The notes under the pieces were generated by a model. It saw nothing but the letters and a program-made list of their open reading frames with translations. It did not search any database and was not told where the DNA came from. Both the position numbers and the translations under genes were made by a program. From positions 1 through 44,533 of the forward strand of contig JAFVHA010000129.1 of NCBI GenBank assembly GCA_017478035.1: a stretch of 44,533 bases of DNA. Reading direction: 5' to 3'. Below, piece by piece: positions 2,345-34,479 of this stretch. Origin of the DNA: Paludibacteraceae bacterium. Its GTDB lineage: Bacteria; Bacteroidota; Bacteroidia; Bacteroidales; Paludibacteraceae. The first letter of the stretch is position 1, and every line of letters starts with the position of its first letter.

Positions 2345-2372
2345 AATCGTGTTGTTTTAAATGATTAGTATT

Positions 2373-5963: not shown

Positions 5964-5995
5964 TTTGCGTATATAAAAAAAAAGCAGTACTTTTG
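5964..5995 (+). promoter_or_regulatory. Bacteroides-type promoter for tRNA-Glu
   Basis: TTTG-N20-TACTTTTG followed by GCAGCCG, about 25 nt upstream of the tRNA. Confidence 0.75.
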
Positions 5996-6232: not shown

Positions 6233-6264
6233 TTTGCATATGTGAATTTTTTTTTGTAATTTTG
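6233..6264 (+). promoter_or_regulatory. Bacteroides-type promoter
   Basis: TTTGCATATG...N20...TAATTTTG, 32 nt upstream of the ATG at 6296. Confidence 0.7.
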
Positions 6265-8153: not shown

Positions 8154-8158
8154 ATGTA

Positions 8159-8194
8159 GATTTATGATTTCAAATTGATGATTTATGATTTAAG
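8159..8194. repeat. tandem TGATT[TG]A-type words
   Basis: GATTTATGATTTCAAATTGATGATTTATGATTTAAG. Spans the ubiE stop and its last 3 codons. Confidence 0.9.
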
Positions 8195-8882: not shown

Positions 8883-8930
8883 CAAAAGTACAAAATTTAT
8901 TGCATATGTGCAAATTTTTTTGTACCTTTG
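8883..8930. promoter_or_regulatory. back-to-back divergent promoters (ubiE on -, groES on +)
   Basis: - strand: TTTG (8911-8914) N20 TACTTTTG (8883-8890). + strand: ATTG (8899-8902) N20 TACCTTTG (8923-8930). Both -33 boxes lie in TTGCATATGTGCAAA. Confidence 0.75.
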
Positions 8931-9316: not shown

Positions 9317-9317
9317 T

Positions 9318-10982
<1,665 letters not shown>

Positions 10983-11976: not shown

Positions 11977-11983
11977 AAGTTAT

Positions 11984-12018
11984 CAGTATTCAGTATTCAG
12001 TATTCAGTAATCAGTTAA
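11984..12018. repeat. tandem 7-nt word CAGTATT, 3 copies plus 2 variants
   Basis: CAGTATT CAGTATT CAGTATT CAGTAAT CAGTTAA. On the - strand TGA recurs every 7 nt. Confidence 0.95.
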
Positions 12019-13074: not shown

Positions 13075-13075
13075 C

Positions 13076-13105
13076 TCTCAACTTTAAACTTTCAACTTTT
13101 TTTAG
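13076..13105. repeat. tandem CTTT[ACT]AA-type words
   Basis: CTCTCAACTTTAAACTTTCAACTTTTTTTA. This is the reverse complement of the TTGAAAG/TTTAGAG family. Confidence 0.8.
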
Positions 13106-14551: not shown

Positions 14552-14599
14552 CAAAGATACAAAAAAATTTGCATATATCAAAATATTTTTGTAATTTTG
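14552..14599. promoter_or_regulatory. back-to-back divergent promoters
   Basis: - strand -7 TATCTTTG (14552-14559). + strand TTTG (14568-14571) N20 TAATTTTG (14592-14599). Shared TTTGCATATATCAAA core. Confidence 0.7.
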
Positions 14600-15933: not shown

Positions 15934-15957
15934 AAAAGAGGCAAGTCGCCTCTTTTT
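15932..15957 (+). terminator. rho-independent terminator
   Basis: AAAAAGAGGC-aagt-CGCCTCTTTTT. Confidence 0.8.
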
Positions 15958-15963
15958 ATTTTT

Positions 15964-16008
15964 CTAGATCTCTAGATTTCTAGTATTCTAAATCTCTAGA
16001 TAGATCTC
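15964..16008. repeat. tandem 8-nt word CTAGATNT, about 5 copies
   Basis: ctagatct ctagattt ctagtatt ctaaatct ctagatag. Covers the manA stop and its last 6 codons. Confidence 0.9.
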
Positions 16009-16995
16009 CAATAGTTGACAACGGTCTTTGGGTGTGATGACGATGTCGTTGAGCATGGCGGGTATCAGTACCGCCTCGCCGGTTTGCATGGTTACGGTGT
16101 TGTCCTCCGTTTCGGCATCCAATGCCATGATCGAACAGGCCCCTTCTATACACATGTATGCCACGAAAGAGTCCAGGGGTGCATAATCGCGCTGGATAGC
16201 ACGTGTGGGACATAACAGATTCGCTGTGAAATACGGAGACTGCTGCAGGTTTACAGCACCGTCTTTGCGTGCCTCGGGATGCGTCACAGGGGCAAGCGAT
16301 GTATCCGAAGCGGCATGCGAATAATTCATCACTTGGAGCGCTTTCTCCAAATGTAGAGGACGCATCTTTCCGTCGTTGCCGACACGGTTATAATCGTATA
16401 GACGGTACGTGATATCGGAGTTCTCCTGTATCTCCGCCACGATGGTATTCCTCCGCATGGCGTGTACCGTTCCGGACGGTATATAGGCCACATCGCCCGC
16501 GCGTACCTTATATTCGCGCATGTAACGCGCGAGAGTGCCAGACTGAATGGCCTCTTTGATACGCGCCTCGTCCATCGGTTCGTTCCAACCCAAATAGATA
16601 GCCGCCTCTTCGGCAGAAGGCATCACGTACCACATCTCGGTCTTGCCCAGCGAGTCCTCGTTCTCCAAGGCATAGTCATCGTCCGGATGAACCTGAATAG
16701 ACAGGTCATCTGTCGCATCAATGAATTTCAGCAAGAGGGGAAAATGATTTCCGAAGACATCATACACACCCGTGCCTACCAGTTCGTCCATATAGACCTC
16801 CAACAAGTCCTGCAGCGTGTCGCCGGCGTGAGAGCCGTTGATGACCTCGGTCGGATACTTATCCACATCGGAAAGCACCCATGCCTCGCCGACGTTCTCA
16901 TAGTCAGCGGGCACATGGCTGTACCACTTCGCGATGGTCTGTCCTCCCCAAATCTTATGGAAGAGTTGCGCCTTGAATTTGAAAGGGTAAAGCAT
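15988..16995 (-). CDS. manA: class I mannose-6-phosphate isomerase
   Basis: MLYPFKF...KIWGG start and a cupin core with LSIQVHPDD. Confidence 0.85.
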   Translation of the reverse strand: MLYPFKFKAQLFHKIWGGQTIAKWYSHVPADYENVGEAWVLSDVDKYPTEVINGSHAGDTLQDLLEVYMDELVGTGVYDVFGNHFPLLLKFIDATDDLSIQVHPDDDYALENEDSLGKTEMWYVMPSAEEAAIYLGWNEPMDEARIKEAIQSGTLARYMREYKVRAGDVAYIPSGTVHAMRRNTIVAEIQENSDITYRLYDYNRVGNDGKMRPLHLEKALQVMNYSHAASDTSLAPVTHPEARKDGAVNLQQSPYFTANLLCPTRAIQRDYAPLDSFVAYMCIEGACSIMALDAETEDNTVTMQTGEAVLIPAMLNDIVITPKDRCQLLEIYLEI

Positions 16996-17001
16996 AAACC
17001 T

Positions 17002-17038
17002 TTGATTTATGATTGATGATTTATGATTTACAATTTAC
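17002..17038. repeat. tandem TGATT[TG]A words
   Basis: TTGATTTATGATTGATGATTTATGATTTACAATTTAC. TGA (+ strand) and TAA (- strand) occur in all three frames; counted by hand. Confidence 0.95.
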
Positions 17039-18056
17039 GGATGTGCTTTTCCCATTCCCAAGCGGAAGCGAGGACGTCACGGATAGGCGTATCCGCTTTC
17101 CAACCCAACACTTTGTTCGCTTTCTGCGGAGCCGCCCATACTTGTTCGATATCTCCTTCGCGTCGTCCGACAATGGTATAAGGAATCTTGATGCCGGTAG
17201 CGGCTTCGAACTCGTTGATGAGCGTGAGTACGCTGAGTCCTGTACCTGTTCCAAGGTTGAAGACCTCCACCTGCTCACGATCTTTGGCATGGAGCATACG
17301 CTCGATGGCTTTGACGTGCGCTTTGGCGAGGTCCACTACATAGATATAATCGCGGATACACGAACCATCGGGTGTGTTATAATCGTTTCCGAACACTTTC
17401 AGTTCGGGCCGAAGGCCGGCAGCCGTCTGCGTGATGAACGGCAAGAGGTTCTGAGGTACGCCGTTCGGCAGTTCGCCGATGGCTGCGGAGGGATGAGCGC
17501 CGATAGGATTGAAATAACGCAGGATGGTGGCATGCAGTCCTTTGTCAGCGTGCGCCTCGTCGCAGATGATCTCTTCGTTAATCTGCTTGGTGTTTCCGTA
17601 GGGCGAGAGAGCCTTCTGGATAGGTGCGGTCTCATCCACCGGCAGATGATTCTCATCCGGCTGTCCGTACACGGTGCAGGACGAGGAGAAGACGAGGTTG
17701 GGCACCTGATGCAGCCGCATCACTTCCAGCAAGGTAATAAGGCTGCCAATATTATTGCGATAGTAGAGCAACGGTTTCTCGACGGACTCGCCGACCGCTT
17801 TGCTGGCAGCAAAATGAATAGCACCGACGATATCCGGGTACTGGCGGAAAACGCTGTCGAGGTCCACGAAATTGGCACAGTCGATATTCGCGAAGTCCGG
17901 TTTCTTGCCTGTGATGGCTTCGATGCCGTCCAGGACGTCAATAGACGAGTTGCTCAAGTTATCCACGATGGTGACATCGTAGCCCTGTTGCATCAGCTCC
18001 ACGGCTGTATGCGAGCCTATGTATCCGGTTCCTCCGGTAACGAGGATTCTAGACAT
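17028..18056 (-). CDS. galE: UDP-glucose 4-epimerase
   Basis: VTGGTGYIGSH Rossmann motif and YGNTK catalytic motif. Confidence 0.95.
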   Translation of the reverse strand: MSRILVTGGTGYIGSHTAVELMQQGYDVTIVDNLSNSSIDVLDGIEAITGKKPDFANIDCANFVDLDSVFRQYPDIVGAIHFAASKAVGESVEKPLLYYRNNIGSLITLLEVMRLHQVPNLVFSSSCTVYGQPDENHLPVDETAPIQKALSPYGNTKQINEEIICDEAHADKGLHATILRYFNPIGAHPSAAIGELPNGVPQNLLPFITQTAAGLRPELKVFGNDYNTPDGSCIRDYIYVVDLAKAHVKAIERMLHAKDREQVEVFNLGTGTGLSVLTLINEFEAATGIKIPYTIVGRREGDIEQVWAAPQKANKVLGWKADTPIRDVLASAWEWEKHIRKL

Positions 18057-18095
18057 TGATGATTGATGATTTATGATTTATAATTTGTGATTTAG
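18057..18095. repeat. tandem TGATT[TG]A words
   Basis: TGATGATTGATGATTTATGATTTATAATTTGTGATTTAG. Confidence 0.9.
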
Positions 18096-18991
18096 AATAA
18101 TTTGGCGGGATAATCGCCTTTGGCGATGAGTTGATTGATTTTCATGACCACTTGCGGACGGTCTTCTGCATAGGTAACGCCGAACCATTTGGACGGAGTA
18201 TCCAGCACTTTGCATGTTGCTTTGCCGGCGGCAATCAGGTCATTGACCAGCGTCGGGATATAAAACTCGGATTTGAGTTCCTGTCCGTGCGCGAGGATGA
18301 ATGCTTTGAAGGCCTCTTCGGAGTATTGGAAATACTCGGGTGTGAAGCCCCACATGTTCATGGAAACGGGTGTGTTCGGAGCAAGCGGCGTGTCTTTGCC
18401 GTCTTCAGTGAAGACGATCTGTCCGTCTTTCTCCTCGATCTTCGTACGCTCCACCACGTCGGTGAGCAGTCCGTCAGCGTCGGTGGTACAAACGCCACGA
18501 CTAACGGCACCGTTCTCGCTGAGCGTGTTGCATACGCGGTAACCGACCATGCAGTAACGGCCTTGTGTTCCTTCCACCGAGCGCAGATAATCCGCCAGCA
18601 CTTGGAAAGACTCCTTGCCGTAGAAATCATCGGCATTGATGACGGCGAACGGTTCCTTGATCAGATCTTTGCCCATCAGTACGGCGTGGTTAGTGCCCCA
18701 TGGTTTGGCACGTTCGGGATTAAAAGTGCATCCTTCGGGCACTTTGTCAATAGCCTGGAAGCATACTTCGCACGGTACTTTGTGCGCATATTTGGACAGC
18801 ACTTTGTCACGGAAATCGGCTTCGAAATCCTTGCGGATGACAAACACGATCTTCCCGAAGCCGGCACGCAGGGCATCAAAGACGCTATAGTCCATGATGG
18901 TCTCGCCATTGGGACCCAGACCGTCTAATTGTTTCAATCCTCCGTAACGGCTTCCCATACCTGCCGCCAAGATAAATAATGTAGGTTGCAT
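18092..18991 (-). CDS. sugar-phosphate nucleotidyltransferase-family protein
   Basis: LAAGMGSRYGG nucleotide-binding loop at the N-terminus. Start at ATG 18991; the longer ORF overlaps the upstream gene. Confidence 0.75.
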   Translation of the reverse strand: MQPTLFILAAGMGSRYGGLKQLDGLGPNGETIMDYSVFDALRAGFGKIVFVIRKDFEADFRDKVLSKYAHKVPCEVCFQAIDKVPEGCTFNPERAKPWGTNHAVLMGKDLIKEPFAVINADDFYGKESFQVLADYLRSVEGTQGRYCMVGYRVCNTLSENGAVSRGVCTTDADGLLTDVVERTKIEEKDGQIVFTEDGKDTPLAPNTPVSMNMWGFTPEYFQYSEEAFKAFILAHGQELKSEFYIPTLVNDLIAAGKATCKVLDTPSKWFGVTYAEDRPQVVMKINQLIAKGDYPAKLF

Positions 18992-18992
18992 A

Positions 18993-19031
18993 TTATTATG
19001 ATTTTTGATTGCAAATTGATGATTGATGATT
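18993..19031. repeat. tandem TGATT-type words
   Basis: ATTATTATGATTTTTGATTGCAAATTGATGATTGATGATTC. Confidence 0.85.
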
Positions 19032-20138
19032 CTATTCATTGACGATGATGGTTTTACCGTCTTTTTTCTTATGCTTGAACCAAAGGCCATACACCTCGGA
19101 GCAGTTACCGGCGGTGATGAACGCTTTGATTTTGTTGTTACGTATAAACGCCATGAGGGACGAGAACTCGTCCTGGGTGAGCAGTACTTGGATCTCCAGA
19201 TGTTCCTCTCCGCTGTACCCGCCTTGAATCTTATAGATCGAACATCCGCGTACGAGGTCGTCCACAATGTACTTACGTATCCGGTCGGGTTCTGCGGATA
19301 CGATGCAGACACGTTTGCGTTTGTTGAGTGATGCAGTGAAATAATCGATGGCCAGGCCGTTGATCCATGTACCGATGATGCCGATGACCACCATGCGGAA
19401 GTCATTGATCAGGAAGGAAGTGCAGCATATGATGACACCTCCGATGGCCACGGACGAACCGATATCGAAATGCAGGTACTTATTGACTATCTTACCTAAG
19501 ATATCGAGTCCTCCTGTGGAAGCATTGATGCGGAAGAGAACCGCCTGGCATATACTGAGCAAGAGGACGAAACAGATGAGGTCGAACCACACGTCTCCCG
19601 TACCGAGCGAACCGGACATCACGCTGTCACGTACGCGCTCCATTACTTCACCGGAACGGCTGAGGATGTACGGATTGCCATGAGCGTCCAGGACAGTCTG
19701 ACCGGCCTGCAGTTGGGTGAGTATCTCCGGCGCGTCGATGACCTTGTGGGTGAAGTTATAATAGGGATAGATACGGTCCCACATTTGCGTCAAAGGACCC
19801 AATATCATCGCCGTATAGACTGTTTTGGCGCCGAACTCATTACCGATCAGGATGAACGCCATCAAGAGCAGGAAGGCGTTGATGCCCATCACCCAGTAGG
19901 AGAACGTGTCTGCCGTGCCGCCCACGAGCGTATTCAACACGATAGAAAGACCGGATATCGAGCCTACGATGAGGTGACTCGGAATGAGGAAGTAATAGAC
20001 GGCAATGGCTCCGACGCTCAAACCCAGCGTCATCATCACCAGTTCGCGCCAGAACTTAAGGGTGCCAAGGGCTTGATAGAAAGAGAGGAACAAGTCTCTC
20101 CAATGTGCCCAAGTGATATATTGTTTTAAGTGTTCCAT
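19032..20138 (-). CDS. YitT-family membrane protein (DUF2179 C-terminal domain)
   Basis: Multi-TM N-terminal part and a soluble C-terminal domain. Start at ATG 20138, below the lysC stop. Confidence 0.7.
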   Translation of the reverse strand: MEHLKQYITWAHWRDLFLSFYQALGTLKFWRELVMMTLGLSVGAIAVYYFLIPSHLIVGSISGLSIVLNTLVGGTADTFSYWVMGINAFLLLMAFILIGNEFGAKTVYTAMILGPLTQMWDRIYPYYNFTHKVIDAPEILTQLQAGQTVLDAHGNPYILSRSGEVMERVRDSVMSGSLGTGDVWFDLICFVLLLSICQAVLFRINASTGGLDILGKIVNKYLHFDIGSSVAIGGVIICCTSFLINDFRMVVIGIIGTWINGLAIDYFTASLNKRKRVCIVSAEPDRIRKYIVDDLVRGCSIYKIQGGYSGEEHLEIQVLLTQDEFSSLMAFIRNNKIKAFITAGNCSEVYGLWFKHKKKDGKTIIVNE

Positions 20139-20150
20139 TAAATGGATTCC

Positions 20151-20182
20151 GGATTTATGATTTAAGATTTTTGATTTATGCA
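20151..20182. repeat. tandem GATTTA-type words
   Basis: GGATTTATGATTTAAGATTTTTGATTTATGCA. Confidence 0.85.
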
Positions 20183-21420
20183 TTGTCTTTGACCACAAGT
20201 CGTGCGGTGCGGCGGGTGGTCTGACTAAGCATGATGGTTCGTCCGGCCTTGGCGCGATCGATGATCTCAGGCGTTGTGCCGCGGATCGTAAGCAGCGACA
20301 GACCGTCGTTATAGGTCACATTGAAATGCACCTGGAGGGCTTCCAAGGCTGCCGGTACAAAACGCGTGTTATCCACACAGACGGAGATAGTGACGGCAGA
20401 GGACTGGATAAGCGACACTTTGAGTCGGTTGCGCTGAATGATATCGAAGATCTCACTCAGGCTCTCCTCGAGCACAAAGGCGAAGTCCTTTGCCCGCATG
20501 GTGATCAGTATCTGGTTCTTGCGCCAAATATATACCGGCACGTCAATCGGTCCAATCCCGTCTGCCGCGATACGTGAGCCGGCGGCGGTGGGGTTTCCGA
20601 AAGGTTTGACGAACAGCGGTATCTGTTTGTTCTCGAGCGGCCGTATGGTCTTCGGGTGGATGACCTGCGCACCGGAGTAACTCAGTTCGACGGCATCCTG
20701 ATAACGGAGCGAGGGGATGAGTACGGTGTCGGGTTCGATACGCGGGTCGGCATTGAGGATGCCCGGCACATCTTTCCATATCGTGACGGATTCAGCGTCC
20801 AGATAATTAGCGAGCAGCGCGGCCGTGTAATCGGAGCCTTCGCGTCCGAGTGTAGTACGTTTGCCGTCAGCGGTACCTCCTATGAATCCCTGCGCCACGA
20901 CGACGGACGGCCGGTTGGGCCTCTCCCACCCTGCGCGAATCACTTCACGACTGACGGCATCATCCACGCGTGCTTCGCGCCACGTCTCATCCGTGCGCAG
21001 CAGTTTGGGCATGTTCCACCATTCGACGGAAAGGCCTTGTTTGAGCAGATAGACGGCGATGATCTGAGTGGAGAGCAGTTCGCCCATTGAAACGACCTGA
21101 TCGTAGTTCTCGTCGTAAGGCAGCGTCGGGTCATAGGGAATCTCTCCCTGCAGACGGATATCAACTCCGGGTTGCAGGCCGAGTTCCTTCATGATCGCCA
21201 CGTGATAATCGAAGATATCCACCCATTGGGTGAGGGCTTTGTCTTCCTGTCCGGCGGCGCAGTAATCAACCACCCGCTCAAGGGCGTTGGTAGTCTTGCC
21301 CATGGCAGAGACGACGACCATCAGATCGTCTGAACCGGCCATGCGGACGATTCGCTCCAAGTTACGGACACCTTGCGCGTCCTTCACCGAGGCTCCACCG
21401 AATTTGAAAACTTTAGCCAT
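20176..21420 (-). CDS. lysC: aspartate kinase
   Basis: KFGGASV start motif, VVSAMGKTT, and a C-terminal ACT-like region. Confidence 0.9.
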   Translation of the reverse strand: MAKVFKFGGASVKDAQGVRNLERIVRMAGSDDLMVVVSAMGKTTNALERVVDYCAAGQEDKALTQWVDIFDYHVAIMKELGLQPGVDIRLQGEIPYDPTLPYDENYDQVVSMGELLSTQIIAVYLLKQGLSVEWWNMPKLLRTDETWREARVDDAVSREVIRAGWERPNRPSVVVAQGFIGGTADGKRTTLGREGSDYTAALLANYLDAESVTIWKDVPGILNADPRIEPDTVLIPSLRYQDAVELSYSGAQVIHPKTIRPLENKQIPLFVKPFGNPTAAGSRIAADGIGPIDVPVYIWRKNQILITMRAKDFAFVLEESLSEIFDIIQRNRLKVSLIQSSAVTISVCVDNTRFVPAALEALQVHFNVTYNDGLSLLTIRGTTPEIIDRAKAGRTIMLSQTTRRTARLVVKDNA

Positions 21421-21454
21421 TAGCCTTTTGCCATTAGCCCTTAGCCTTTAGAGG
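21411..21454. repeat. tandem TTAGCC-type 7-nt words
   Basis: CTTTAGCCATTAGCCTTTTGCCATTAGCCCTTAGCCTTTAGAGG. Includes the lysC start codon region (ATGGCTAAAG on the - strand) and the ribH stop. Confidence 0.9.
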
Positions 21455-21924
21455 TTCGCCATGCGGATGGCGGTATAAGCGCCTTCGATACCTTTGTTAC
21501 CGAGTTTGCCGCCACAACGATCGAGTGCCTGCTGTTTGTTGAGGACAGTGAGTACGGAGAAGATGACCGGCACTTTGCCTTGTGTATTCAGCGCCGCAAC
21601 CCCTTGCGTCACAGACTGGCAGACGTAATCGAAATGAGGAGTATCCCCTTGTATGACGCAGCCGATAACGATGACGGCGTTCACGCGTTCTTCTTTCATG
21701 ATACGCGCGGCTCCGTACGTCAGTTCGACGGCACCGGGCACATGCAGCACGCTGATGTTATCCTGCGCTACGCCATGTTTGACGAAGGTGTCGATGGCTC
21801 CTTGCGCCATAGCGTAGGTGATCTCGCTGTTCCAATCCGCCACTATAATTGCGTAGCGCTGACGTTCGAGAACATCAGCGCTTGGCAATTGATTCGCATC
21901 GTATTTCGATAGATCTGTTGTCAT
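21448..21924 (-). CDS. ribH: 6,7-dimethyl-8-ribityllumazine synthase
   Basis: Typical length; VPGAVEL and GVIQGDTPHFDYV-like motifs. Confidence 0.93.
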   Translation of the reverse strand: MTTDLSKYDANQLPSADVLERQRYAIIVADWNSEITYAMAQGAIDTFVKHGVAQDNISVLHVPGAVELTYGAARIMKEERVNAVIVIGCVIQGDTPHFDYVCQSVTQGVAALNTQGKVPVIFSVLTVLNKQQALDRCGGKLGNKGIEGAYTAIRMANL

Positions 21925-21930
21925 TGGTCG

Positions 21931-22617
21931 TTAGTCGTTAGCGACCGCGATATATTTGTCAATGTCTTGTGCTTCGGCAGAAGAAGGATAATTGTCCTTA
22001 ATAGCCTGGAAAGCCTTGAGAGCTTTGCCGTTACGTCCTTCGTGCAGATAGACGATACCGAGTTTCTTGAGGCTCATCGGAGCGATGATCTCATTTCCGG
22101 ACTCAGCAGCAGCTTCGAAAGCCTTGGTAGCTTTGCCGTACTCTTGAAGTTCCACATAGGCATCACCGAGCAGCTGGCGTGCTGCGGGATCGATGTTCAG
22201 GTCGTCTGCCTCGAAACGTTTGAGGTACTTGGCAGCATCCTCAAACTCACCTTTCTCAAAATAGCAGATACCGGCGTAGAGGGCAGCGAGCTTACCTTGC
22301 TGATAATGCTTGTACTCATCTGCGATTGCTTCGAAACCGAGGCACTCGGCGTCGTCACCGTTCAGCGCTTTCTCATAATCGCCCGCCATGAAATAAACGA
22401 CCGCTTTCGCGTTCTCGTTACTTGCCTCGAGGGCTTTGGGTTTGATGACGTACTGATTGATGGCGATGATGCCCATTACGACTACGGCGATTCCGCAAAC
22501 GATCCAGCTGATGAGGTTCGCATTGTCTTCAATCCATTGACCTGCGCCGGTGAGCGCTTCATTCACTTCTTGCAATTGTTCGTCCTGTTTAACGAACTGT
22601 TCTTTCTTTTTTGCCAT
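21931..22617 (-). CDS. membrane-anchored TPR-repeat protein
   Basis: One TM segment (WIVCGIAVVVMGIIAI), then TPR-like AxxYxxxGxY repeats. Start at ATG 22617, downstream of the promoter. Confidence 0.65.
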   Translation of the reverse strand: MAKKKEQFVKQDEQLQEVNEALTGAGQWIEDNANLISWIVCGIAVVVMGIIAINQYVIKPKALEASNENAKAVVYFMAGDYEKALNGDDAECLGFEAIADEYKHYQQGKLAALYAGICYFEKGEFEDAAKYLKRFEADDLNIDPAARQLLGDAYVELQEYGKATKAFEAAAESGNEIIAPMSLKKLGIVYLHEGRNGKALKAFQAIKDNYPSSAEAQDIDKYIAVAND

Positions 22618-22658
22618 TGTTTGTATTAATAATTTATATGAATTTTCAAAATCGGGCA

Positions 22659-22690
22659 CAAAGGTACTACTTTTTTTTGATATATGCAAG
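22659..22690 (-). promoter_or_regulatory. Bacteroides-type promoter heading a 7-gene co-directional array
   Basis: - strand: CTTG N20 TACCTTTG with an A8 spacer cassette. Confidence 0.7.
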
Positions 22691-22705
22691 AAAAAGTAAA
22701 ACTTT

Positions 22706-22774
22706 TTTAGTTTAGAGTTTAGAGTTTAGAGTTGAAAGAAGTTGAAAGAAGTTGAAAGTTTAGAGTTGAGAGAT
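22706..22774. repeat. compound tandem array: TTTAGAG x3, TTGAAAGAAG x2.7, then TTTAGAG TTGAGAG
   Basis: Read directly; periods of 7 and 10 nt. Confidence 0.95.
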
Positions 22775-22806: not shown

Positions 22807-22907
22807 TATTCCAATTGCATGCAAAAATGCTTAAAATGCAACAAATTGTATATATATACTATGTATATATATAGTAGAAGGCACTATTTTGTCATTTTTG
22901 GGCATTC

Positions 22908-23000
22908 ATCCTTGGGTGATCCTTGGGTGATTGTTGGGTGGTCTTTTGGTTTTCCTCCGTAGTTGCCCCGTAAATGCTCCGTAAATGCTCCGTAATTACT
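22908..23000. repeat. two 11-nt tandem word arrays
   Basis: CCTTGGGTGAT x2 plus a variant (22908-22943). CCGTAAATGCT x2 plus CCGTAATTACT (22968-23000). Confidence 0.9.
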
Positions 23001-23001: not shown

Positions 23002-24963
23002 TTACTTCACATCCTTCACGAGGCGGACGGAGAATCCATTATACCTGTGATCTTCTTTTATTCCAGCCGCCCATCCACGTCCTTCAGCTCTGATCCCCCA
23101 CATGAAAACATTACAGTGGTAATTGACAAAATCTCCTACTTGGCTTACGATTCCAGTCGATGAATGATATATACCTGTCGTATCCATATAGTGGACTACA
23201 AGATGATCGGCAACTTCTCGGTCACGGAATCCTGCTGCTGGAAGGAATATGGCCCCCTCCTTTTCCATCAGCCTCCATTGCTGGTTCATATAATAATTTT
23301 TTGCACCAGGTGAAAACTCAACCCCATCAGGCGTTACCCACGTATCAGGAAGGAAGACGTATCCATTAACAGGATCCAATGATTCGGATGGTTTAATAGT
23401 TGCCGTCCCTCTAAGTTTGTTGGCATTCTCTCTCTCTGCGTAAAGATACTGCCACTCGTCCTTAGTAAGCGTACGCCATTCATTGGCAAAACCGCTATTA
23501 CCGATGGGATTTACCCCCCAGTCGACAAAGGGAGCGAAATCTTCGTCTTTATAGCTCTCCATCAGGGGTTTATAACCGGTTCCCCAACAGAACAAGTCTA
23601 TCCATCCGTCATAATCTTCCTCTATGTCTTCATTGATCTTGCCCCGATACTCGTATTGTCTGTCGGCAAAACGCCAGCTCTTCGAACGCGGATGATACCA
23701 GAGGTTACCGGGTGAGAAATACACTTTCTTAGTGGGGCTGACCGAGAAATAAGGTTCCCTGTTATCCGCACGATGGATAGGAAGTTCCTGCTTTGCCCCA
23801 TCAACAGAGCTATAGATAGTGATTAAACCGTTCTTTTCTTCGCCTCCCTCCGGTGCGGGTGCGACACTCACTACCATCGTCGCATCTCCGTCACCCTTGG
23901 TCGTTGAAATGGTAAAGAAATCGCCACCGGTTACCCTTGCCTTCCATTCATAACTACTATAAATTTCCACAGTAAAATCGCCTCCTGTTTTCGGAGCAAA
24001 AATACTCGCGGGGTAGACAGACAGGTCGGCGTCCCATTTACGTTCGCGACTTACGTACACGGGCAATTGAACGGGTCTGTAGGAGTCGGAACGTACTTCC
24101 ATCACAGTAAGCACGGTTGCTATTGAAGTTTTTGATGTCGATGGAAGCACTGTGATGTTGAAGGAGCCGTTTCCGGTCTTTTCATTATTGTCGCTAAGCG
24201 TCACCCAATAGGCGTCCCACGGCTTGGTGACCATCCATTTGGCGTCAGTTGTTACATTCACAGTAAAAGAGCCTCCCTCGGCCGGGGCTTCCATATTTTG
24301 CGGATCCACGGTCATCGATGTTGCGTCAGAGGCGCTACGGGTGATCGTCACCGTCTGCTTCTCGACGCCGGTACCCTCCATCGGGGTAACAGTGATGGTA
24401 GCTACGGTCTCTTCAGGCATGGTAGCCGGATCCACATTTACCGTGATGATCGCATTGTTGCGTTTGACTGCCTCACCGTCAATCTTAGCCCAAGTGACGT
24501 TGCTCGCTATCTGCCATTTGATATTACTCTCCACCTGGACGATATAAACACCTCCGTCTTTCGGAGTCTTAATCTCGGTATCACTGGCAATTATCAGACG
24601 TGCCGGGTCTTTCGCCAAGCGTTTGACAGGCACTTCCACCGTCCGGTCACCGGACTTGAACACAATCTTGCTGTTCGCCTCCGTACTGGTCTTGTCTGCT
24701 GCAATCTTCACACTAATCTCCACTGTGCCGGCGTTCCCCGAAGCGGGATTGATTTTGACCCAGCTGTCCGCACAACTCGCCGTCCATGCCTCCGGTGCGG
24801 TGAGAGAAAGCGTGTAATCTGCGCCGATACTCGGACTGATAATGCTGTTAGGCGTAACAGCCAAATTGATCACTTCCTGCTCAGGCTCTGCGTCCTTTGC
24901 TCCTTTCTTACAGCCCACAAAGACAAGGGGCAGTAACAACGAAAGAATAAAAAATCTCTTCAT
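23002..24963 (-). CDS. surface lipoprotein with tandem BACON-like domains and a DUF1566/Fib_succ-like C-terminal domain
   Basis: Lipobox LVFVGC; 4-5 repeats of about 90 aa with W..W....G.G.F...V; C-terminus ends GFSVRLVKD. Confidence 0.75.
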   Translation of the reverse strand: MKRFFILSLLLPLVFVGCKKGAKDAEPEQEVINLAVTPNSIISPSIGADYTLSLTAPEAWTASCADSWVKINPASGNAGTVEISVKIAADKTSTEANSKIVFKSGDRTVEVPVKRLAKDPARLIIASDTEIKTPKDGGVYIVQVESNIKWQIASNVTWAKIDGEAVKRNNAIITVNVDPATMPEETVATITVTPMEGTGVEKQTVTITRSASDATSMTVDPQNMEAPAEGGSFTVNVTTDAKWMVTKPWDAYWVTLSDNNEKTGNGSFNITVLPSTSKTSIATVLTVMEVRSDSYRPVQLPVYVSRERKWDADLSVYPASIFAPKTGGDFTVEIYSSYEWKARVTGGDFFTISTTKGDGDATMVVSVAPAPEGGEEKNGLITIYSSVDGAKQELPIHRADNREPYFSVSPTKKVYFSPGNLWYHPRSKSWRFADRQYEYRGKINEDIEEDYDGWIDLFCWGTGYKPLMESYKDEDFAPFVDWGVNPIGNSGFANEWRTLTKDEWQYLYAERENANKLRGTATIKPSESLDPVNGYVFLPDTWVTPDGVEFSPGAKNYYMNQQWRLMEKEGAIFLPAAGFRDREVADHLVVHYMDTTGIYHSSTGIVSQVGDFVNYHCNVFMWGIRAEGRGWAAGIKEDHRYNGFSVRLVKDVK

Positions 24964-25078: not shown

Positions 25079-25110
25079 TTTGCGTATATCAAAAAAAAGC
25101 AGTAAATTTG
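25079..25110 (+). promoter_or_regulatory. Bacteroides-type promoter for lepA
   Basis: TTTGCGTATATCAAAAAAAAGCAGTAAATTTGCAGCCG. Confidence 0.75.
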
Positions 25111-26936: not shown

Positions 26937-27758
26937 TTATGCTTTCAATATATGCTTGCTTTCCACATTCTCCAACACAGTCATTTGTTGGATCGCTATT
27001 TGGTTGAGTTTCTGGAGGCGTTCTCCTTGTGGTAAGCCTTCATTGATGAATACTGCATTCAGGTTCTCCATATTACTCAGACAAATCAACTGGTTAATCG
27101 TCGCGTAGTCGCGTATATTACCTTTATCCTCTGGATGCGCATCACGCCATTCTTTAGCGGTCATTCCAAACAACGCCACATTGAGCACATCAGCTTCATT
27201 AGCATAAATGAGTGAACGATGGTAAGGGTCAATCTCCTGCGGGATAAGGTGCTCTTTTATCGCGTCTGTATGTATATGGTAGTTGATTTTTGCCAACTCG
27301 CGTTTCGCCGACCATCCGAGTGCCTTTTGTTCCTCCTCTTTGAGGCGTTGGAACTCCTTAATCAAATAGAGTTCAAACTCAACTGACACCCAACTGGCAA
27401 ACTTAAAAGCTATATCGCGCTGCGCATATGTACCGCCATTATTCCCACTCTTAGAAATAATGCCTATAGCTCCTGTTAATTCAATCCAACGTGACGGGCT
27501 AAGGGTGAAAGCATTACTACCAGCCTCACGCAAAAGGGGATCGAATTCGACCCCTTTGAAAAGAGGATTATTTAATGCTTCCCACATGCCAAGATACTCA
27601 ATCGTATTTTTGAGTCGCATCCAGTTTTTGACTACATCTTTTGGTTCTATGGCATTCTTCTGCCTTGCAATATCCGTAATACAGATATAGTCCCATCCGT
27701 TCTGCGAAAACGAACGGATAGTTGTGTCCTTGACGATTATTTCTTTTTGCTTTGCCAT
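26937..27758 (-). CDS. KilA-N domain-containing protein
   Basis: The N-terminal pattern DYICITDIAR...NWMRLKNTIEYLGMWE...NNP matches my memory of KilA-N proteins from Bacteroidales. No partner gene nearby. Confidence 0.65.
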   Translation of the reverse strand: MAKQKEIIVKDTTIRSFSQNGWDYICITDIARQKNAIEPKDVVKNWMRLKNTIEYLGMWEALNNPLFKGVEFDPLLREAGSNAFTLSPSRWIELTGAIGIISKSGNNGGTYAQRDIAFKFASWVSVEFELYLIKEFQRLKEEEQKALGWSAKRELAKINYHIHTDAIKEHLIPQEIDPYHRSLIYANEADVLNVALFGMTAKEWRDAHPEDKGNIRDYATINQLICLSNMENLNAVFINEGLPQGERLQKLNQIAIQQMTVLENVESKHILKA

Positions 27759-27844
27759 CTTCTATCTATCTTTTCACCGCTTTTTTACGCTGTCGGTGTC
27801 AGCGGAATTACGATGCGATTATTGTTCCGCACGCAATTTGCATG

Positions 27845-27876
27845 CAAAGGTATAACTTTTTTTTGAATTATGCAAA
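27845..27876 (-). promoter_or_regulatory. Bacteroides-type promoter for the KilA-N gene
   Basis: - strand: TTTG N20 TACCTTTG with an A8 spacer. Confidence 0.65.
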
Positions 27877-28107
27877 TAAATCTCTCTTTTTTTCTCTATA
27901 CTACCTCAAAAACTCATCGTAGCCGCGAGGAAAACTATCAAAAGAACCAATCTCCCCGGCAGAAATGAAACTCTGCGGCCTTTGCGTATGCCAACCGCGA
28001 GTTAGCCAAACTCCGCTCTTTTGTTTCTTTTCTTTTTCTTTTTCTTTCTCCAGGGATGTCTGAAATAGGCAAGAAATAGAGGAATTTTGTGGAAAAATAA
28101 TCTTTCA

Positions 28108-28139
28108 TTTGCTCATTTCAAAAAAAAGTAGTACCTTTG
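28108..28139 (+). promoter_or_regulatory. Bacteroides-type promoter
   Basis: TTTG N20 TACCTTTG. A 5' UTR hairpin ACTCGC-tttta-GCGAGT lies at 28141-28157. Confidence 0.7.
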
Positions 28140-28180
28140 CACTCGCTTTTAGCGAGTTTAAATTAATTAAATAAAGTACT

Positions 28181-29527
28181 ATGGAACAATTTGTACATTC
28201 GGCATGGTCGCTGATTCCGTTCGGACTCATGCTTCTGATGATTGCTATCGGTCCGCTGGTAGCAGAACACTGGTGGGAGAAGAACACCAACAAACTCATT
28301 GTTTCCCTCTTCCTCGGTGTACCGGTAGCGGTATGCCTGATTATGGGCGGAATGATGCACGAGTTGGAGCACCAGATCTTCTTCGACTACGTGCCGTTCA
28401 TCATCCTTCTGCTGGCGCTGTTTGTCATCACCGGCGGTATTCATTTCTCGGGTGACCTGAAAGCCAAGCCTTGGGTCAACACCGGTTTCTTGGGCTTGGG
28501 CTGGATATTAGCCTCTATCATGGGTACGACGGGAGCCGCAATGCTCCTCATCCGTCCGCTCATCGAGACCAACAAACAGCGTGAATACAAGGTTCACACC
28601 ATCCTTTTCTTCATCGCTCTGGTAGCCAACTGCGGCGGTCTACTGACCCCGCTGGGAGACCCACCCTTGTTCATGCTCTTCCTCCGCGGCGCACATTTCT
28701 CCTGGTTTATGCACTTGGCACCTGAATGGGCCGTAACAGGAATTATCCTGCTTGCTATTTACTACGCTTTGGATAGCTATTACTACAAGAAAGAGCACTG
28801 GACTTCCCTTTCTGCCGATGCACGTGAGGCTACCCCGCTGGTAATGAAAGGTACTATCAATTTCGTATATCTGTTAGGCGTAGTGCTGGCAGTGGCTTTT
28901 GTGAACGAAGGAACCATCAAGCAGATGGGTGAAGCAGACGCTCCGCTGTGGCTCAAATACCTGCGTGAGATAGTGCTGCTCTCGCTCACAGGTCTCTCGC
29001 TCTACACGACCAAGAAAGAGGTGCGTTATGACGACAACAAGTTCAGCTGGACTCCGATAGTAGAGGTTGCTGTTCTGTTCCTCGGAATCTTCACGACGAT
29101 GACCCCTGCCCTCGCCTATCTGAAGGCGCACGCAGCCGACCTCGGTTTCACCCACGCATGGCAGTTCTATTACTCGACCGGTGCGCTCTCTGCGTTCCTC
29201 GATAACACGCCGACAGCGGTTGCATTCCACGGTGTAGCTTCCGGTCTGCCGGAATCGCTTGCTGCCGCTCAAGCCGGTGTCGTAACAGGCATGTTCGAAG
29301 GTACGCCTTTCGTAGCCGGTATTCCGGAGATACTGCTCAAAGCCATCTCCATCGCGGCTGTGATGTTCGGCTCACTGACCTATATCGGCAACGGACCTAA
29401 CTTCATGGTGAAAGCTATCGCAGAGGAAAGCGGAATCAAGATGCCATCGTTCTTCGGATATATGATTAAGTTCAGCTTGATCATCCTCCTGCCGGTTTAC
29501 ATCATTGTTCAACTGCTTTTCATCTAA
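28181..29527 (+). CDS. ArsB/NhaD/CitMHS-superfamily ion transporter (putative Na+/H+ antiporter)
   Basis: About 11-12 TM segments and a general resemblance to the family. Substrate not inferable. Confidence 0.65.
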   Translation: MEQFVHSAWSLIPFGLMLLMIAIGPLVAEHWWEKNTNKLIVSLFLGVPVAVCLIMGGMMHELEHQIFFDYVPFIILLLALFVITGGIHFSGDLKAKPWVNTGFLGLGWILASIMGTTGAAMLLIRPLIETNKQREYKVHTILFFIALVANCGGLLTPLGDPPLFMLFLRGAHFSWFMHLAPEWAVTGIILLAIYYALDSYYYKKEHWTSLSADAREATPLVMKGTINFVYLLGVVLAVAFVNEGTIKQMGEADAPLWLKYLREIVLLSLTGLSLYTTKKEVRYDDNKFSWTPIVEVAVLFLGIFTTMTPALAYLKAHAADLGFTHAWQFYYSTGALSAFLDNTPTAVAFHGVASGLPESLAAAQAGVVTGMFEGTPFVAGIPEILLKAISIAAVMFGSLTYIGNGPNFMVKAIAEESGIKMPSFFGYMIKFSLIILLPVYIIVQLLFI

Positions 29528-30180
29528 TGACATTTGTTGATAATATTATCGCGTGGTACTCGGCGCATATGAACTATGCGTCGATTACTGCGCTGATGGC
29601 GGTAGAGAGTTCGTTCATTCCCTTCCCGAGCGAAGTGGTCATTCCTCCCGCCGCGTTTGTGGCGGGTCAACCGGAGAGTGTGCTATGCGCCACGGGCAAC
29701 TATACGGTGGACGTATTGATCATCGTGCTTTTCGGAACGTTGGGAGCGATGATCGGCGCCATCATCAACTACGGCCTGTCCGTATGGCTCGGACGACTCA
29801 TCATCTATAAGTTCGCGGACAGCAAAGTGGGGCATATGTGCCTGTTGTCGAGCGAGAAATTGGAGAAAGCGGAGGCCTATTTCCGCGAGAAAGGTAACGT
29901 ATCCACGTTTATTGGTCGTTTCATCCCCGGCATACGCCAGTTGATTTCCATTCCAGCGGGTCTGAGCCGCATGCATTTCGGTGCCTTCCTATGGTGGACG
30001 TTCCTCGGGGCGTTTATATGGAACTGTATTCTTGCCGCACTGGGTTACGTAGCCGCCGGACAAATGGACCGTATCAAAGAATACAGCCACGAACTAAGCG
30101 TGGCTATACTCGTGCTATTCGGTTTGGTAGTCGTTTACTTCGTCGTAAAACGGTTTGTCTTTAAGAAAGCCAAGAGTTGA
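29527..30180 (+). CDS. DedA-family membrane protein
   Basis: VESSFIPFPSEVV and FIGRFIPGIR motifs. Confidence 0.85.
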   Translation: MTFVDNIIAWYSAHMNYASITALMAVESSFIPFPSEVVIPPAAFVAGQPESVLCATGNYTVDVLIIVLFGTLGAMIGAIINYGLSVWLGRLIIYKFADSKVGHMCLLSSEKLEKAEAYFREKGNVSTFIGRFIPGIRQLISIPAGLSRMHFGAFLWWTFLGAFIWNCILAALGYVAAGQMDRIKEYSHELSVAILVLFGLVVVYFVVKRFVFKKAKS

Positions 30181-30199
30181 GATTTGAGAGATGAAAGAG

Positions 30200-31147
30200 T
30201 TAAGCCTTCAGCCATTCGCTGAGGGCTTTTCTTTTGTCAATCAGTTCGGCGATAAGGCAGCCTCCTATCCATCCCATCAGGAAGAAGAGGAACACAAACA
30301 GTTTGCGCCCGTGCAAGGGCTTGGGGTCCACAGCGAAATGGTTCTCGAGCGTGACAGGCGCAGTAGCCAGTTGCAAGCGATAATCCCAGCGCTGTAGGTG
30401 AGCCTGCTGCTCGTAGATATCCTTAAGGAAGAGCTGTATCTCGCGGTCGCCGTAGAAATTGACACCGTTCCCGTTGTACGCCATCGGTTTGGCCGGCGAG
30501 GCGGGATAGAAATAATAGCAACTGGTAAGGCTGTCGAGTTTGAGGGCCTGGGCATGGTTGAACGCCACTTCCGCCCGCAGGTTACGGAGATAGGACACAT
30601 AGGCCTGCTGCATAGCCGGATTCGCATTGAGGGTGACCATGAGAGCGTGCTCGATCTCGGGCAACAAGTGCATGTCGCGCGTCTTGATGCGGAACTGCAG
30701 ACAAAGGCGGTCCTGCATCTGAACGTTCGTCGTATCCGTAGGCTGGATCTTACGCTTGAAATCAATGAAATCCGCCGTCTCGTCATGCAGACAGTCGATG
30801 ACGCGGAAGGAGTCAAAACGGCGTGCCACCTTGCCGACAAACGGCGTGATCGGCGCTTCCGGCGGTAACATCAGCCCCGAGCGCAAAGGTGTATAGGCCT
30901 GCTCGAACTGCTGGATAGTAGGTCCGTTGAGCAATGCCACAGCGTTCACTTTGAACGTACGGTTCTCCAGACGGGTATAGTATAAAGCCGCCGCCACCGC
31001 GAGGAGGGTGAGGGTGAGCACGATCCACCAGTATTTATACGTCAGGCGGATCATCCGCTCTATCACGCGCCAAACGGCCAGACAACAACGACCTATCGCT
31101 CGGCCACATGCGGCGCAGAGGTCAAAGAAATTCATTTCGTGAGCCAT
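30200..31147 (-). CDS. bitopic membrane protein, TM - large loop - TM (polysaccharide co-polymerase-like topology)
   Basis: TM segments near residues 40-60 and 290-310. Last gene of the fts unit. No family recognised. Confidence 0.5.
   Translation of the reverse strand: MAHEMNFFDLCAACGRAIGRCCLAVWRVIERMIRLTYKYWWIVLTLTLLAVAAALYYTRLENRTFKVNAVALLNGPTIQQFEQAYTPLRSGLMLPPEAPITPFVGKVARRFDSFRVIDCLHDETADFIDFKRKIQPTDTTNVQMQDRLCLQFRIKTRDMHLLPEIEHALMVTLNANPAMQQAYVSYLRNLRAEVAFNHAQALKLDSLTSCYYFYPASPAKPMAYNGNGVNFYGDREIQLFLKDIYEQQAHLQRWDYRLQLATAPVTLENHFAVDPKPLHGRKLFVFLFFLMGWIGGCLIAELIDKRKALSEWLKA
30202..30235 (+). terminator. rho-independent terminator of the transporter-dedA unit, embedded in the 3' end of the convergent CDS
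   Basis: AAGCCTTCAGC-cattc-GCTGAGGGCTT followed by TTCTTTT. Confidence 0.65.
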
Positions 31148-31148
31148 A

Positions 31149-31188
31149 AAAAGTATTCAGTGTTCAGTTTTCAGTATTCAGTTATTTT
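31149..31188. repeat. tandem 7-nt word TTCAGT[AGT]
   Basis: AAAAGTATTCAGTGTTCAGTTTTCAGTATTCAGTTATTTT. On the - strand TGA recurs every 7 nt. Confidence 0.9.
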
Positions 31189-33726: not shown

Positions 33727-34479
33727 TTATAAGTTGGGGTTTCGCCCGATGACCTGTCCGTGAAAACGGAGGTCCAGTTCGGTATAATGTTTGTCTTTGA
33801 TCGCCTGGGCGCTGTTCTCCATGAATAGCTGCAGTTTGGCCAGTTTACGTTCGTATCCTTTGACGGTTCCGAGGACGATGCAGGGCGTATTCTCTCCGCG
33901 CAGATGGATATGAATCATGGCCGGTGAGAGTACCTGTATATAGCGTATCCGTTTCTGCCAATAGGGTTCGTCTTGCAGCCACAAGGCAAAGTCCGCCAGC
34001 GGTCCTGAAGCCATATGAATGCCCACCGTTCCGCGAACCATCAGCACACTGTCTTTCACCGCCGCACGAACCGGCATCACGCGTCGGTCGCGATCAATGA
34101 AATAGGTCTCGGCGCCCGTCTGCACGCGCAACAAAGGAACGCGTTGCGTGATTCGGATTCGCACCTCATTACGGGGCGTGAGATAACACTCGGCCGTCCG
34201 GACCATCGGATGATTCGTGATCGTCCGCTCCATACGGGAGAGGGATATATTATCCAAGTTCTTACCCACCGGGTAAATATCTTCGGCTTTCAGCAGTTGG
34301 GTCAGTTCGTTCTCGGTGAGGTACATACGCTCGTTCCGGTCCTCAATGATATACCGCATCGAAGTGCACGGCACGGAAGACGGCGTCATCCGAAAGCCCC
34401 ATACCACCGCGGTGACGAGCAGCGAGCCCATGATCACGATGCCTATCGTTTTCCATACTATGTTAGCGGTATGACTCAT
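33727..34479 (-). CDS. ftsQ: cell division protein FtsQ
   Basis: N-terminal TM segment plus a POTRA-like region. Sits between murC and ftsA. Confidence 0.8.
   Translation of the reverse strand: MSHTANIVWKTIGIVIMGSLLVTAVVWGFRMTPSSVPCTSMRYIIEDRNERMYLTENELTQLLKAEDIYPVGKNLDNISLSRMERTITNHPMVRTAECYLTPRNEVRIRITQRVPLLRVQTGAETYFIDRDRRVMPVRAAVKDSVLMVRGTVGIHMASGPLADFALWLQDEPYWQKRIRYIQVLSPAMIHIHLRGENTPCIVLGTVKGYERKLAKLQLFMENSAQAIKDKHYTELDLRFHGQVIGRNPNL

Follow-up and report, generated by a model that had tools for sequence, protein, structure and literature searches.

The 44.5-kb stretch of DNA analysed here (contig JAFVHA010000129.1, hereafter the window) is chromosomal DNA of an uncultured rumen member of the Paludibacteraceae (Bacteroidales). 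Its focal range, 15964-22774, carries on the minus strand the genes for a TPR protein, ribH, lysC, yitT, a nucleotidyltransferase (NTase), galE and manA. The subject of this report is the spacers: throughout the window, nearly every spacer of 12-53 nt between co-directional genes, read on the gene strand, is a tandem array of the heptamer type. The Bacteroidetes-type promoter motif TTTG-N20-TAnnTTTG was found at 11 sites in the window, all of them within long intergenic regions, so TPR-ribH-lysC-yitT-NTase-galE-manA reads as one operon of seven unrelated genes, and the short spacers within it are therefore intercistronic. This agrees with the first-pass annotation of the window, which had placed such arrays between the cistrons of long operons and had taken the organism to manage without Shine-Dalgarno sequences.

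Period-7 arrays in the window

Arrays were called with Tandem Repeats Finder (TRF), overlapping calls were removed, and expectations were taken from 200 dinucleotide shuffles within 60-nt blocks. The window contains 48 arrays, compared with 8.7 per shuffle, and period 7 alone accounts for 23, compared with 1.08 per shuffle, a more than 20-fold excess. Period 14 is represented by 2 arrays (0.23 per shuffle), and enrichment is mild for period 8 (4 vs 1.3), period 9 (5 vs 1.2) and period 11 (4 vs 1.1) and absent for period 10 (1 vs 1.7). The phenomenon is essentially heptameric, with a minor 11-mer component, and multiples of three are not avoided as a rule among the periods. Periods indivisible by three had been singled out in the first-pass annotation, all of whose listed arrays were recovered by TRF.

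Most arrays comprise 2.9-5.7 copies with 70-100% matches and 0% indels. They are A/T-rich and G-poor (the spacers are 71% A+T), the dominant words being TAAATCA, CTGAATA, AGTTGAG and GGCTAAT, and the density of period-7 arrays is about 5.6 per 10 kb. Location points to a tie with the 3' ends of genes: co-directional spacers (2,220 nt in total) hold 23 arrays and convergent spacers (301 nt) 4. None was found in 1,298 nt of divergent spacer, where about 9 would be expected at the pooled density, or in the 693 nt between sixteen -7 boxes and their start codons.

Variation among strains and related species

All sequence data are metagenome assemblies. About 20 metagenome contigs encode identical proteins and share 96.7-99.97% nucleotide identity with the window, and these provide a strain set of 20 loci. 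Aligned over 9.6 kb, ten strains show six gaps (7, 10, 11, 24, 26 and 34 nt), each of them within an array. The same is true of every indel of at least 7 nt across the 20 loci (7, 7, 7, 7, 8, 10, 11, 11, 26, 34 nt and others), most of which correspond to one unit; indels outside that class are of 1-2 nt only. The first-pass annotation had attributed the arrays to replication slippage and had named copy-number variation at orthologous junctions of related strains as a test. That variation is present, and the slippage-like unit indels speak for the proposed origin.

At ribH/lysC, the whole array is missing in 7 of 9 strains, which have an ATGA gene overlap in its place (a 34-nt difference). The NTase-to-galE array is one unit (7 nt) longer in strains L008 and L015, in which the degenerate yitT-to-NTase array is also replaced by a perfect (AAATCAT)x8 that is 26 nt longer. 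Strain L002 lacks one 10-nt unit of the array at 22709-22772, and the 11-mers at 22908-22995 differ between strains by 11-nt indels, with a deletion in L002 of 24 or 35 nt, depending on the alignment. Further changes include an 8-nt deletion in the ribBA-to-hyp428 array of five strains, 7-nt gains and losses in the hyp143-to-hyp140 array, and 7-nt and 8-nt insertions in the ftsZ-to-hyp315 array of three strains. The arrays move start-codon calls and alter the lengths of genes in metagenome-assembled genomes (MAGs), for example NTase (299 vs 315 aa), yitT (368 vs 383 aa) and lysC (413 vs 414 aa).

A wider species set was assembled from 80 loci (L021-L100; 1.39 Mb in total) with 78-94% identical GalE, nearly all of them from rumen or gut MAGs labelled "Paludibacteraceae bacterium" or "uncultured Bacteroidales". 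With the window shuffle rate scaled to 1.39 Mb, about 34 arrays would be expected for period 7 and about 34 for period 11, compared with 250 and 123 observed; period 14 is represented by 66 arrays. The non-coding arrays include 185 of period 7, 101 of the 123 of period 11, and 53 of period 14, and those in open frames 94 of period 9, 55 of period 12 and 65 of period 7. As many as 130 distinct words occur among the period-7 arrays, so no single motif is involved. Among loci of 15 kb or more, sister species vary widely in array density, between 0 and 7.5 per 10 kb (chi-square 149, 59 d.f., P about 1e-9).

Individual junctions could be followed across these species. At ribH/lysC, the spacer is clearly 7-periodic in 28 of 69 species, which use 19 different consensus words (TAACCCG, TGAAAGG, TAAAGTT, TAATCGA, TAATTGG, CGACTAA and others), and in 23 of the 28 a second or third stop codon stands in register. 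At TPR/ribH, 40 of 70 species have a spacer of 6 nt or less, as do 31 of 75 at NTase/galE and 24 of 71 at galE/manA; TAATG, ATGA or TAAnATG make up many of these, and many of the short-spacer relatives show a plain TAATGAC overlap at TPR/ribH. Across some 70 species and 20 strains, the states of one junction span everything from gene overlap (ATGA, TAATG) to repeat spacers of 130 nt. The variable state of orthologous junctions and the different words used there indicate that the arrays are not conserved elements but have originated repeatedly and independently at one place.

Stop-codon register, origin and possible functions

The position of the arrays relative to the upstream stop codon was analysed for 74 arrays in co-directional junctions of the relatives. 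Array starts cluster between -2 and +3 from the first base of the stop codon, and 34.6% of units have a stop triplet at stop+7k, whereas the remaining six offsets give 2-11%. The repeated unit therefore contains the true stop codon of the upstream gene, from which the stops within later units are inherited. In several cases the junction itself can be recognised as the unit: TAATGAC in many relatives compared with (TAACGAC)(TAACGAC)(CAATGAC) in the window, TAATGGC at ribH/lysC of the window, and, in L036 and its allies, A[TGAAAGT]C as the source of TGAAAGT. Continuation of the unit periodicity into the downstream gene was rejected as a general rule, since matching to the unit breaks down at the TG of the ATG; it holds for particular junctions only.

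The arrays are probably heptanucleotide long simple sequence repeats (SSRs), with some 8- and 11-mers, that originate by slippage or tandem duplication and persist at sites where a 7-nt duplication does no harm, chiefly stop codons. The lineage would have a high, species-variable propensity for duplication or slippage of 7 nt (and 11 nt), acting everywhere in the genome, and replication slippage or tandem duplication would both create arrays and resize them. In a tightly packed genome whose genes typically abut (TAATG, ATGA, TAAnATG), a 7-nt duplication would cause a frameshift almost everywhere. A duplication over a stop codon or stop/start junction would be tolerated, with the first copy ending the upstream gene and the last copy starting the downstream gene, as would duplications downstream of genes. 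Arrays would begin in the register of the stop codon, extend into the spacer and become the spacer, and stops in several frames would be an inherited by-product of the founding unit. What survives would then depend on where the array lies: in genes, arrays without stops whose length (about 21 nt) preserves the reading frame, and no others; on the mRNA strand, words that are A-rich and bring few extra AUGs; and at promoters and 5'-untranslated regions none, leaving these segments array-free.

Slippage as the molecular event and the duplication of junctions are the parts of this scheme that we infer, together with the near-neutrality of the arrays, which is read from their turnover; that indirectness counts against the scheme, and so do several other points. 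The preference for 7 nt, and secondarily for 11 nt, is not accounted for by it. Periodicity generally ends at the ATG, so an origin by junction duplication is demonstrated for some arrays only. The absence of arrays from divergent regions could instead reflect a function tied to 3' ends. Finally, the word AAATCAT and the composite AAATCATAAATTTG[AC]AATCAT, which often ends in ...CATAA-ATG, recur at many non-homologous junctions in many species, including four consecutive junctions of the focal operon, and in the relatives AAATCAT is in the sense orientation in 10 cases and antisense in 0. This recurrence is not predicted by a purely local de novo origin.

Three observations, namely the 7- and 11-nt preference, the recurrence of the AAATCAT/AAATTTG composite and the density differences between sister species, keep a functional reading alive, if at rather long odds. 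In its most specific form, which we regard as unlikely, the arrays, especially sense AAATCAT/AAATTTG near starts, would be lineage-specific, Shine-Dalgarno-independent elements of ribosome recruitment, translation initiation or expression tuning, either as an unstructured A-rich leader or as a site for a ribosomal or RNA-binding protein, with copy number tuning their effect, a model of the MacGregor type. Bacteroidetes do not use Shine-Dalgarno sequences; initiation in this group is tuned by low structure and upstream adenines, and AUG is under-represented near starts (PMC6847099). The sense strand has more A than T in 79 junction arrays and less in 29, and sense ATG is depleted in the window spacers (3 vs 8.1 expected, P=0.026) and weakly in the relatives (42 vs 50), both of which fit this initiation biology and its avoidance of AUG (PMC6847099). 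The two biases also count, in the slippage scheme, as signs of a selective filter at the mRNA level. The predicted minimum free energy (MFE) is 0 for most spacers, the sense-oriented composite often runs directly into the ATG, and start-proximal heptamer repeats are reported in a preprint to affect reporter expression in Nostoc (bioRxiv 10.1101/2022.06.06.494920).

Against a role in initiation, all 16 promoter-to-ATG segments are free of arrays, so the first genes of operons manage without them, and arrays are found at convergent 3' ends, which have no start codon. The words number 130, orthologous junctions are array-free in many sister species, and the groES/groEL array, of the same AAATCTT/AAATTTG family, is antisense to its genes. 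Low structure is fully explained by composition: the MFE of the spacers equals that of their shuffles (mean z 0.1), which rules out that the repeats lower RNA structure below the expectation from composition. Were the tuning reading true, copy-number changes between strains would retune the relative output of genes within operons, and the density differences between sister species would mark gain or loss of a tuning system, or of a mutator specific for 7 nt.

The arrays were also considered as carriers of -7 boxes of internal promoters. This idea found little support, as a single TAnnTTTG is present in the short array spacers of the window (9334-9341), in antisense orientation; TAAATTTG, the core of the composite, fits the -7 consensus TAnnTTTG and is present in arrays of relatives.

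Quite improbable, in our judgement, is the explanation offered by the first-pass annotation, that of frame-independent translation barriers or re-initiation spacers. Under it, selection would maintain the arrays as barriers or fail-safe terminators whose three-frame stops halt read-through or frameshifted ribosomes and reset translation between cistrons. The hand count of TGA and TAA at 17002-17038 in the annotation is right, and the arrays themselves are real. Because the focal genes are encoded by the minus strand, the sense words are TAAATCA, TAAAGGC and TAACGAC, and the TGA words of the plus strand lie antisense to the genes. Some observations do suit a barrier. Arrays follow stop codons, also at convergent 3' ends, extra stops keep the register of the true stop at distances of +7, +14 and +21, units with a stop are found in 62 of 78 co-directional arrays of relatives on the sense strand compared with 45 of 78 on the antisense strand, and three-frame stops have been noted for the TAACTGA repeats (MacGregor 2015, PMC4679880).

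The stop codons, however, are no more frequent than composition predicts. In 21 short co-directional spacers, each shuffled and with the own stop codon of each gene excluded, 44 stop triplets were counted on the sense strand (42.65 +/- 4.3 expected, P=0.43) and 50 on the antisense strand (41.1 expected). Enrichment beyond composition is ruled out by the shuffles and the antisense comparison, and a stop density no higher than A+T-rich composition predicts is what the annotation itself had named as refuting its model. All three frames are closed without the true stop in only 5 of the 21 spacers (2.4 expected, P=0.06). Neither are in-register stops better conserved: in 31 stop-registered arrays, 90.6% of these positions match the unit consensus, compared with 88.6% for the remaining four (P=0.45). 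The stop has been lost from one third to one half of the later units in several junction arrays, and some arrays are stop-free altogether (ATTGGCT, CTTTCAACTT, the 11-mers and the heptamers within coding sequences). Sister species have no spacer at equivalent junctions, where TAATG or ATGA is found instead, and at convergent 3' ends there is no re-initiation to be served.

There is very little to recommend phase-variable contingency loci, in which SSRs would switch particular genes on and off. Copy number does differ between strains in unit steps, but the flanking genes are housekeeping genes (manA, galE, lysC, ribH, groEL, ftsZ, recR) rather than surface or restriction-modification genes, and the arrays, present at almost every junction, lie between genes after stop codons and not in 5' coding regions. 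Chance in A+T-rich spacers, an artefact of metagenome assembly or a footprint of transposon target sites can be set aside with near certainty, given the excess of period 7 over local dinucleotide shuffles, the recurrence of arrays in independent assemblies from different samples and pipelines, copy numbers of 3-9 that are incompatible with target-site duplication, and the lack of adjacent mobile-element genes.

Comparison with known repeats and other features of the window

Heptameric long SSRs were described by Mrázek, Guo and Shah in 2007, as summarised in PMC4679880 and PMC4692102, as the most over-represented class in many bacteria, mainly intergenic, with slippage proposed as their source. 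According to these summaries, the heptamer excess has been known since then and is still without an explanation. The repeats of that study are direct repeats of 5-11 nt, led by heptamers, mainly intergenic, tolerated in genes when the unit is a multiple of three, and patchy across lineages. The window arrays likewise consist of head-to-tail units of 5-11 nt in at least 3 copies with few or no indels, are over-represented relative to composition-matched sequence with period 7 as the leading class, differ by whole units between close strains, and have units that are not multiples of three mainly outside genes, with frame-keeping totals within genes. To our knowledge, and as far as the summaries of that study extend, the stop-codon register and the junction origin are not described there.

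Similar in position are the TAACTGA direct repeats, located directly upstream of non-Shine-Dalgarno starts in marine Beggiatoaceae, cyanobacteria and five Bacteroidetes including Paludibacter (MacGregor 2015, PMC4679880). They too come as 2-6 or more forward copies, which place a stop in each of the three frames; they stand before housekeeping genes, and some overlap the stop codon upstream. A description of the kind that the first-pass annotation did not know of therefore does exist. The TAACTGA system has one dominant word, with related heptamers seldom in tandem, and horizontal spread or a specific binding protein was proposed for it (PMC4679880). The arrays of the present lineage use 130 words or more, which can differ between species at a single orthologous junction; they are missing upstream of promoter-proximal genes and present at the 3' ends of convergent genes. 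Arrays in the intercistronic spacers of the window do show the forward orientation near non-Shine-Dalgarno starts; before 16 promoter-proximal genes there are none. The word TAACTGA itself has only two near-matches in the window (12004-12017 and 31171-31184, with 1 and 2 mismatches), both TAACTGA-like first units.

The STRR1 heptamer of cyanobacteria is CCCCAGT. Allowing up to 2 mismatches, the window has no match to CCCCAGTCCCCAGT, the STRR1 word being the only one of its family searched. The STRR repeats of Calothrix and Nostoc are likewise tandem heptamers in non-coding DNA, but they consist of a few fixed words dispersed genome-wide (cited in PMC4692102). In Xanthomonas and Nostoc, intergenic G-rich heptamers (GGGAATC, GGGGA(C/T)T) lie nearest to the upstream open reading frame (ORF) and vary between relatives (Rehm et al. 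2015, PMC4692102). They resemble the window arrays in lying mostly between co-directional genes and in differing in length among close relatives; they differ in having one dominant, G-rich and G-quadruplex-capable word (PMC4692102), whereas the window arrays are A/T-rich, G-poor and unstructured. The window density looks well above that of such single-word cases (169 TAACTGA sets in one draft genome, 117 repeat-bearing intergenic regions in Xanthomonas), although the comparison is indirect. According to the abstract of PMC9879509, Borg elements also have fast-evolving, independently arising tandem repeats between genes and in frame within them, adding short peptide repeats; by the same abstract, they are archaeal and extrachromosomal, and selection for disordered protein regions is claimed.

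An Rfam scan of the window gave tRNA-Glu as its sole match, which indicates that no known RNA family lies behind the arrays; the spacers likewise fold no better than their shuffles. A full-text literature search found no paper naming both Paludibacteraceae and tandem repeat. Judged by their sequence features, the window arrays are heptanucleotide long SSRs that fall outside the word-based TAACTGA and STRR1 families. New are the host lineage, the density, the large number of words that differ from place to place, the register with the stop codon, the lack of arrays in promoter-proximal 5' leaders and the view of spacer birth from overlapping junctions. The clade offers an unusually dense comparative view of heptamer repeats, with one operon junction traceable over about 70 species and about 20 strains, and makes several questions testable: the origin of spacers in compact genomes, the reason for 7 and 11 nt, and the relation of spacer length to translational coupling without Shine-Dalgarno sequences. 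As a natural system it suits an old and unanswered question well, but it is not a new kind of element, and function is unproven.

Table 1. Positions of arrays, promoter motifs and related features (window coordinates unless a relative is named; TRF, extent of the TRF call)
Feature	Position	Strand	Description
8-mer array	15963-16001	-	TAGAGATY-like, about 4.9 copies (TRF); from manA stop codon (15988-15990) to terminator hairpin 15936-15960
galE-to-manA spacer	16996-17037 (TRF 17003-17037)	-	sense (TAAATTG)(TAAATCA)(TAAATCA)(TCAATCA)(TAAATCA)AAGGTTT-ATG; first unit holds galE stop 17028-17030
NTase-to-galE spacer	18055-18094	-	TAAATCA-type heptamers from NTase stop (18092-18094) into galE start codon
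yitT-to-NTase spacer	18992-19034 (TRF 19015-19031)	-	degenerate AATCATC/AATTTGC/AATCAAA from yitT stop
lysC-to-yitT spacer	20139-20180 (TRF 20152-20180)	-	(TAAATCA)(AAAATCT)(TAAATCA)(TAAATCC)(GGAATCC) from lysC stop
ribH-to-lysC spacer	21411-21451	-	(TAAAGGC)(TAAGGGC)(TAATGGC)(AAAAGGC)(TAATGGC); ribH stop in unit 1, lysC ATG in unit 5
TPR-to-ribH junction	21925-21941 (TRF 21927-21941)	-	(TAACGAC)(TAACGAC)(CAATGAC), 3 copies of TAATGAC-like stop/start-overlap heptamer
Heptamers and decamers	22709-22772	-	CTCTAAA/CTCAACT and CTTTCAACTT; between terminator hairpin and TPR operon promoter
Two 11-mer arrays	22908-22995	-	downstream of BACON-domain gene stop (23002-23004)
11-mer and 8-mer arrays	933-1023	.	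TCGCTCTCGTA, x3.9 (933-975) and GGGTTAGA, x3.2 (998-1023); convergent fumC/hyp428 spacer, beside terminator
ribBA-to-hyp428 spacer	2372-2409	-	8-mer CTAGA-type array
ubiE-to-Dabb spacer	8154-8192 (TRF 8159-8192)	-	AAATCAT/CAATTTG heptamers overlapping last ubiE codons and stop
groES-to-groEL spacer	9317-9353 (TRF 9322-9348)	+	7-periodic, AAATCTT/AAATTTG/CAATCTT family, antisense to genes
hyp143-to-hyp140 spacer	11977-12017 (TRF 11983-12015)	-	(TAACTGAT)(TACTGAA)x3
relA-to-recR spacer	13075-13099 (TRF 13080-13099)	-	(TGAAAGT)(TTAAAGT)(TGAGAG)ATG
dedA/hyp315 spacer, convergent	30173-30199 (TRF 30173-30194)	.	AGAGTTG/AGATTTG heptamers
ftsZ-to-hyp315 spacer	31148-31184 (TRF 31152-31182)	-	(TAACTGAA)(TACTGAA)(AACTGAA)(CACTGAA)
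GT2-to-hyp409 junction	39063-39080	-	(TAAATTG)(TAAATTA)
Two arrays after hyp128 stop	41461-41553 (TRF 41461-41485, 41522-41553)	-	ATTGGCT x3-4 and CTCAACT-type; flank terminator, upstream of AAA14 promoter
hyp105-to-hyp128 spacer	41943-41991	-	AGTTGAC/AGTTGAA/AGTTTAA heptamers
hyp87-to-hyp105 spacer	42315-42353	-	8-mers (TGAACGTT)(TAACGAAT)(TAATGAAT)(TAACGCA)
hyp59-to-hyp100b spacer, long	43713-43738	-	CAGAATA-type heptamers (TRF plus-strand consensus TCTGTAT)
hyp97-to-hyp59 junction	43945-43968	-	TAAAGTT/TAAAGAT heptamers
murC, in-frame stop-free heptamers	35642-35673	-	ATCATCA/ATCATCC; 7-residue insertion relative to solved MurC structures
murC, in-frame heptamers	35105-35139	-	GGACAAT; insertion of 4 to 9 residues relative to solved MurC structures, by structure aligned
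murC, period-7 array	34903-34934	-	CTCAACT-type; length unchanged relative to homologues
GT2 glycosyltransferase gene	39855-39885	-	in-frame (TTACGGG)n
Composite AAATCATAAATTTG[AC]AATCAT, window	8154-8192, 9317-9353, 18992-19031
Composite AAATCATAAATTTG[AC]AATCAT, relatives	L066 (e.g. 2125, 7869, 9040, 9977, 15014, 16222, 16702), L036, L040, L044, L067, L089, L095
Promoter motif	5964-5995, 6233-6264, 14568-14599, 25079-25110, 28108-28139, 35900-35931	+
Promoter motif	41411-41442, 40061-40092, 27845-27876, 14552-14582, 8883-8914	-
-7 box	22659-22666		upstream of TPR gene
Terminator hairpin, bidirectional	15936-15960		3' of manA, convergent rsmD/manA spacer

The essential gene murC (34476-35857, minus strand) carries period-7 arrays within its coding sequence. 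Two of them correspond to insertions of whole residues, so the heptamer process also remodels proteins, in 21-nt steps.

The promoter motif of the window is long and almost invariant (TTTGC(A/G)TAT(A/G)T...A/T-run...TAnnTTTG) and marks the limits of transcription units. Two cassettes of about 70 nt, each composed of terminator, heptamers and promoter (22640-22700 and 41390-41460, minus strand), are near-identical, and the promoter cassettes seem to have been duplicated within the genome; in the alignment, the cassette of the TPR operon has 42 nt more of heptamer and decamer units than its paralogue. Between the BACON-domain gene and the TPR operon promoter lies an AT-alternating repeat or palindrome (TATATATATAC...GTATATATATAC, 22849-22873). 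A link to plasmids was considered and dropped: a megablast search of the focal range against plasmids gave one weak Parabacteroides match, inside a gene, which is uninformative for a locus of chromosomal housekeeping DNA.

Beside lepA, strain L002 (1-4830, corresponding to 26937-31924 of the window) has genes for SIR2-like, HerA-like, EcoRI-methylase and GmrSD/HNH proteins, where the window has KilA-N, CitMHS and DedA; from its gene content, the L002 segment looks like a strain-variable defence island. In ribBA (window 2806; L020 3094-4343), a 1-nt deletion in strain L020 splits the gene into two ORFs and represents either a pseudogene or an assembly error. The minus-strand gene hyp428 (428 aa, no Pfam match) contains in-frame repeats whose periods are multiples of three at 1166-1224 and 1305-1392 (CTG runs, an 18-mer and a 30-mer x2.9). 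The segment 41337-44533 (L010 1-4068) encodes eight small ORFs of 59-133 aa, without Pfam matches and with arrays at most junctions; hyp100a and hyp100b are of equal length, and the segment may be accessory or mobile.

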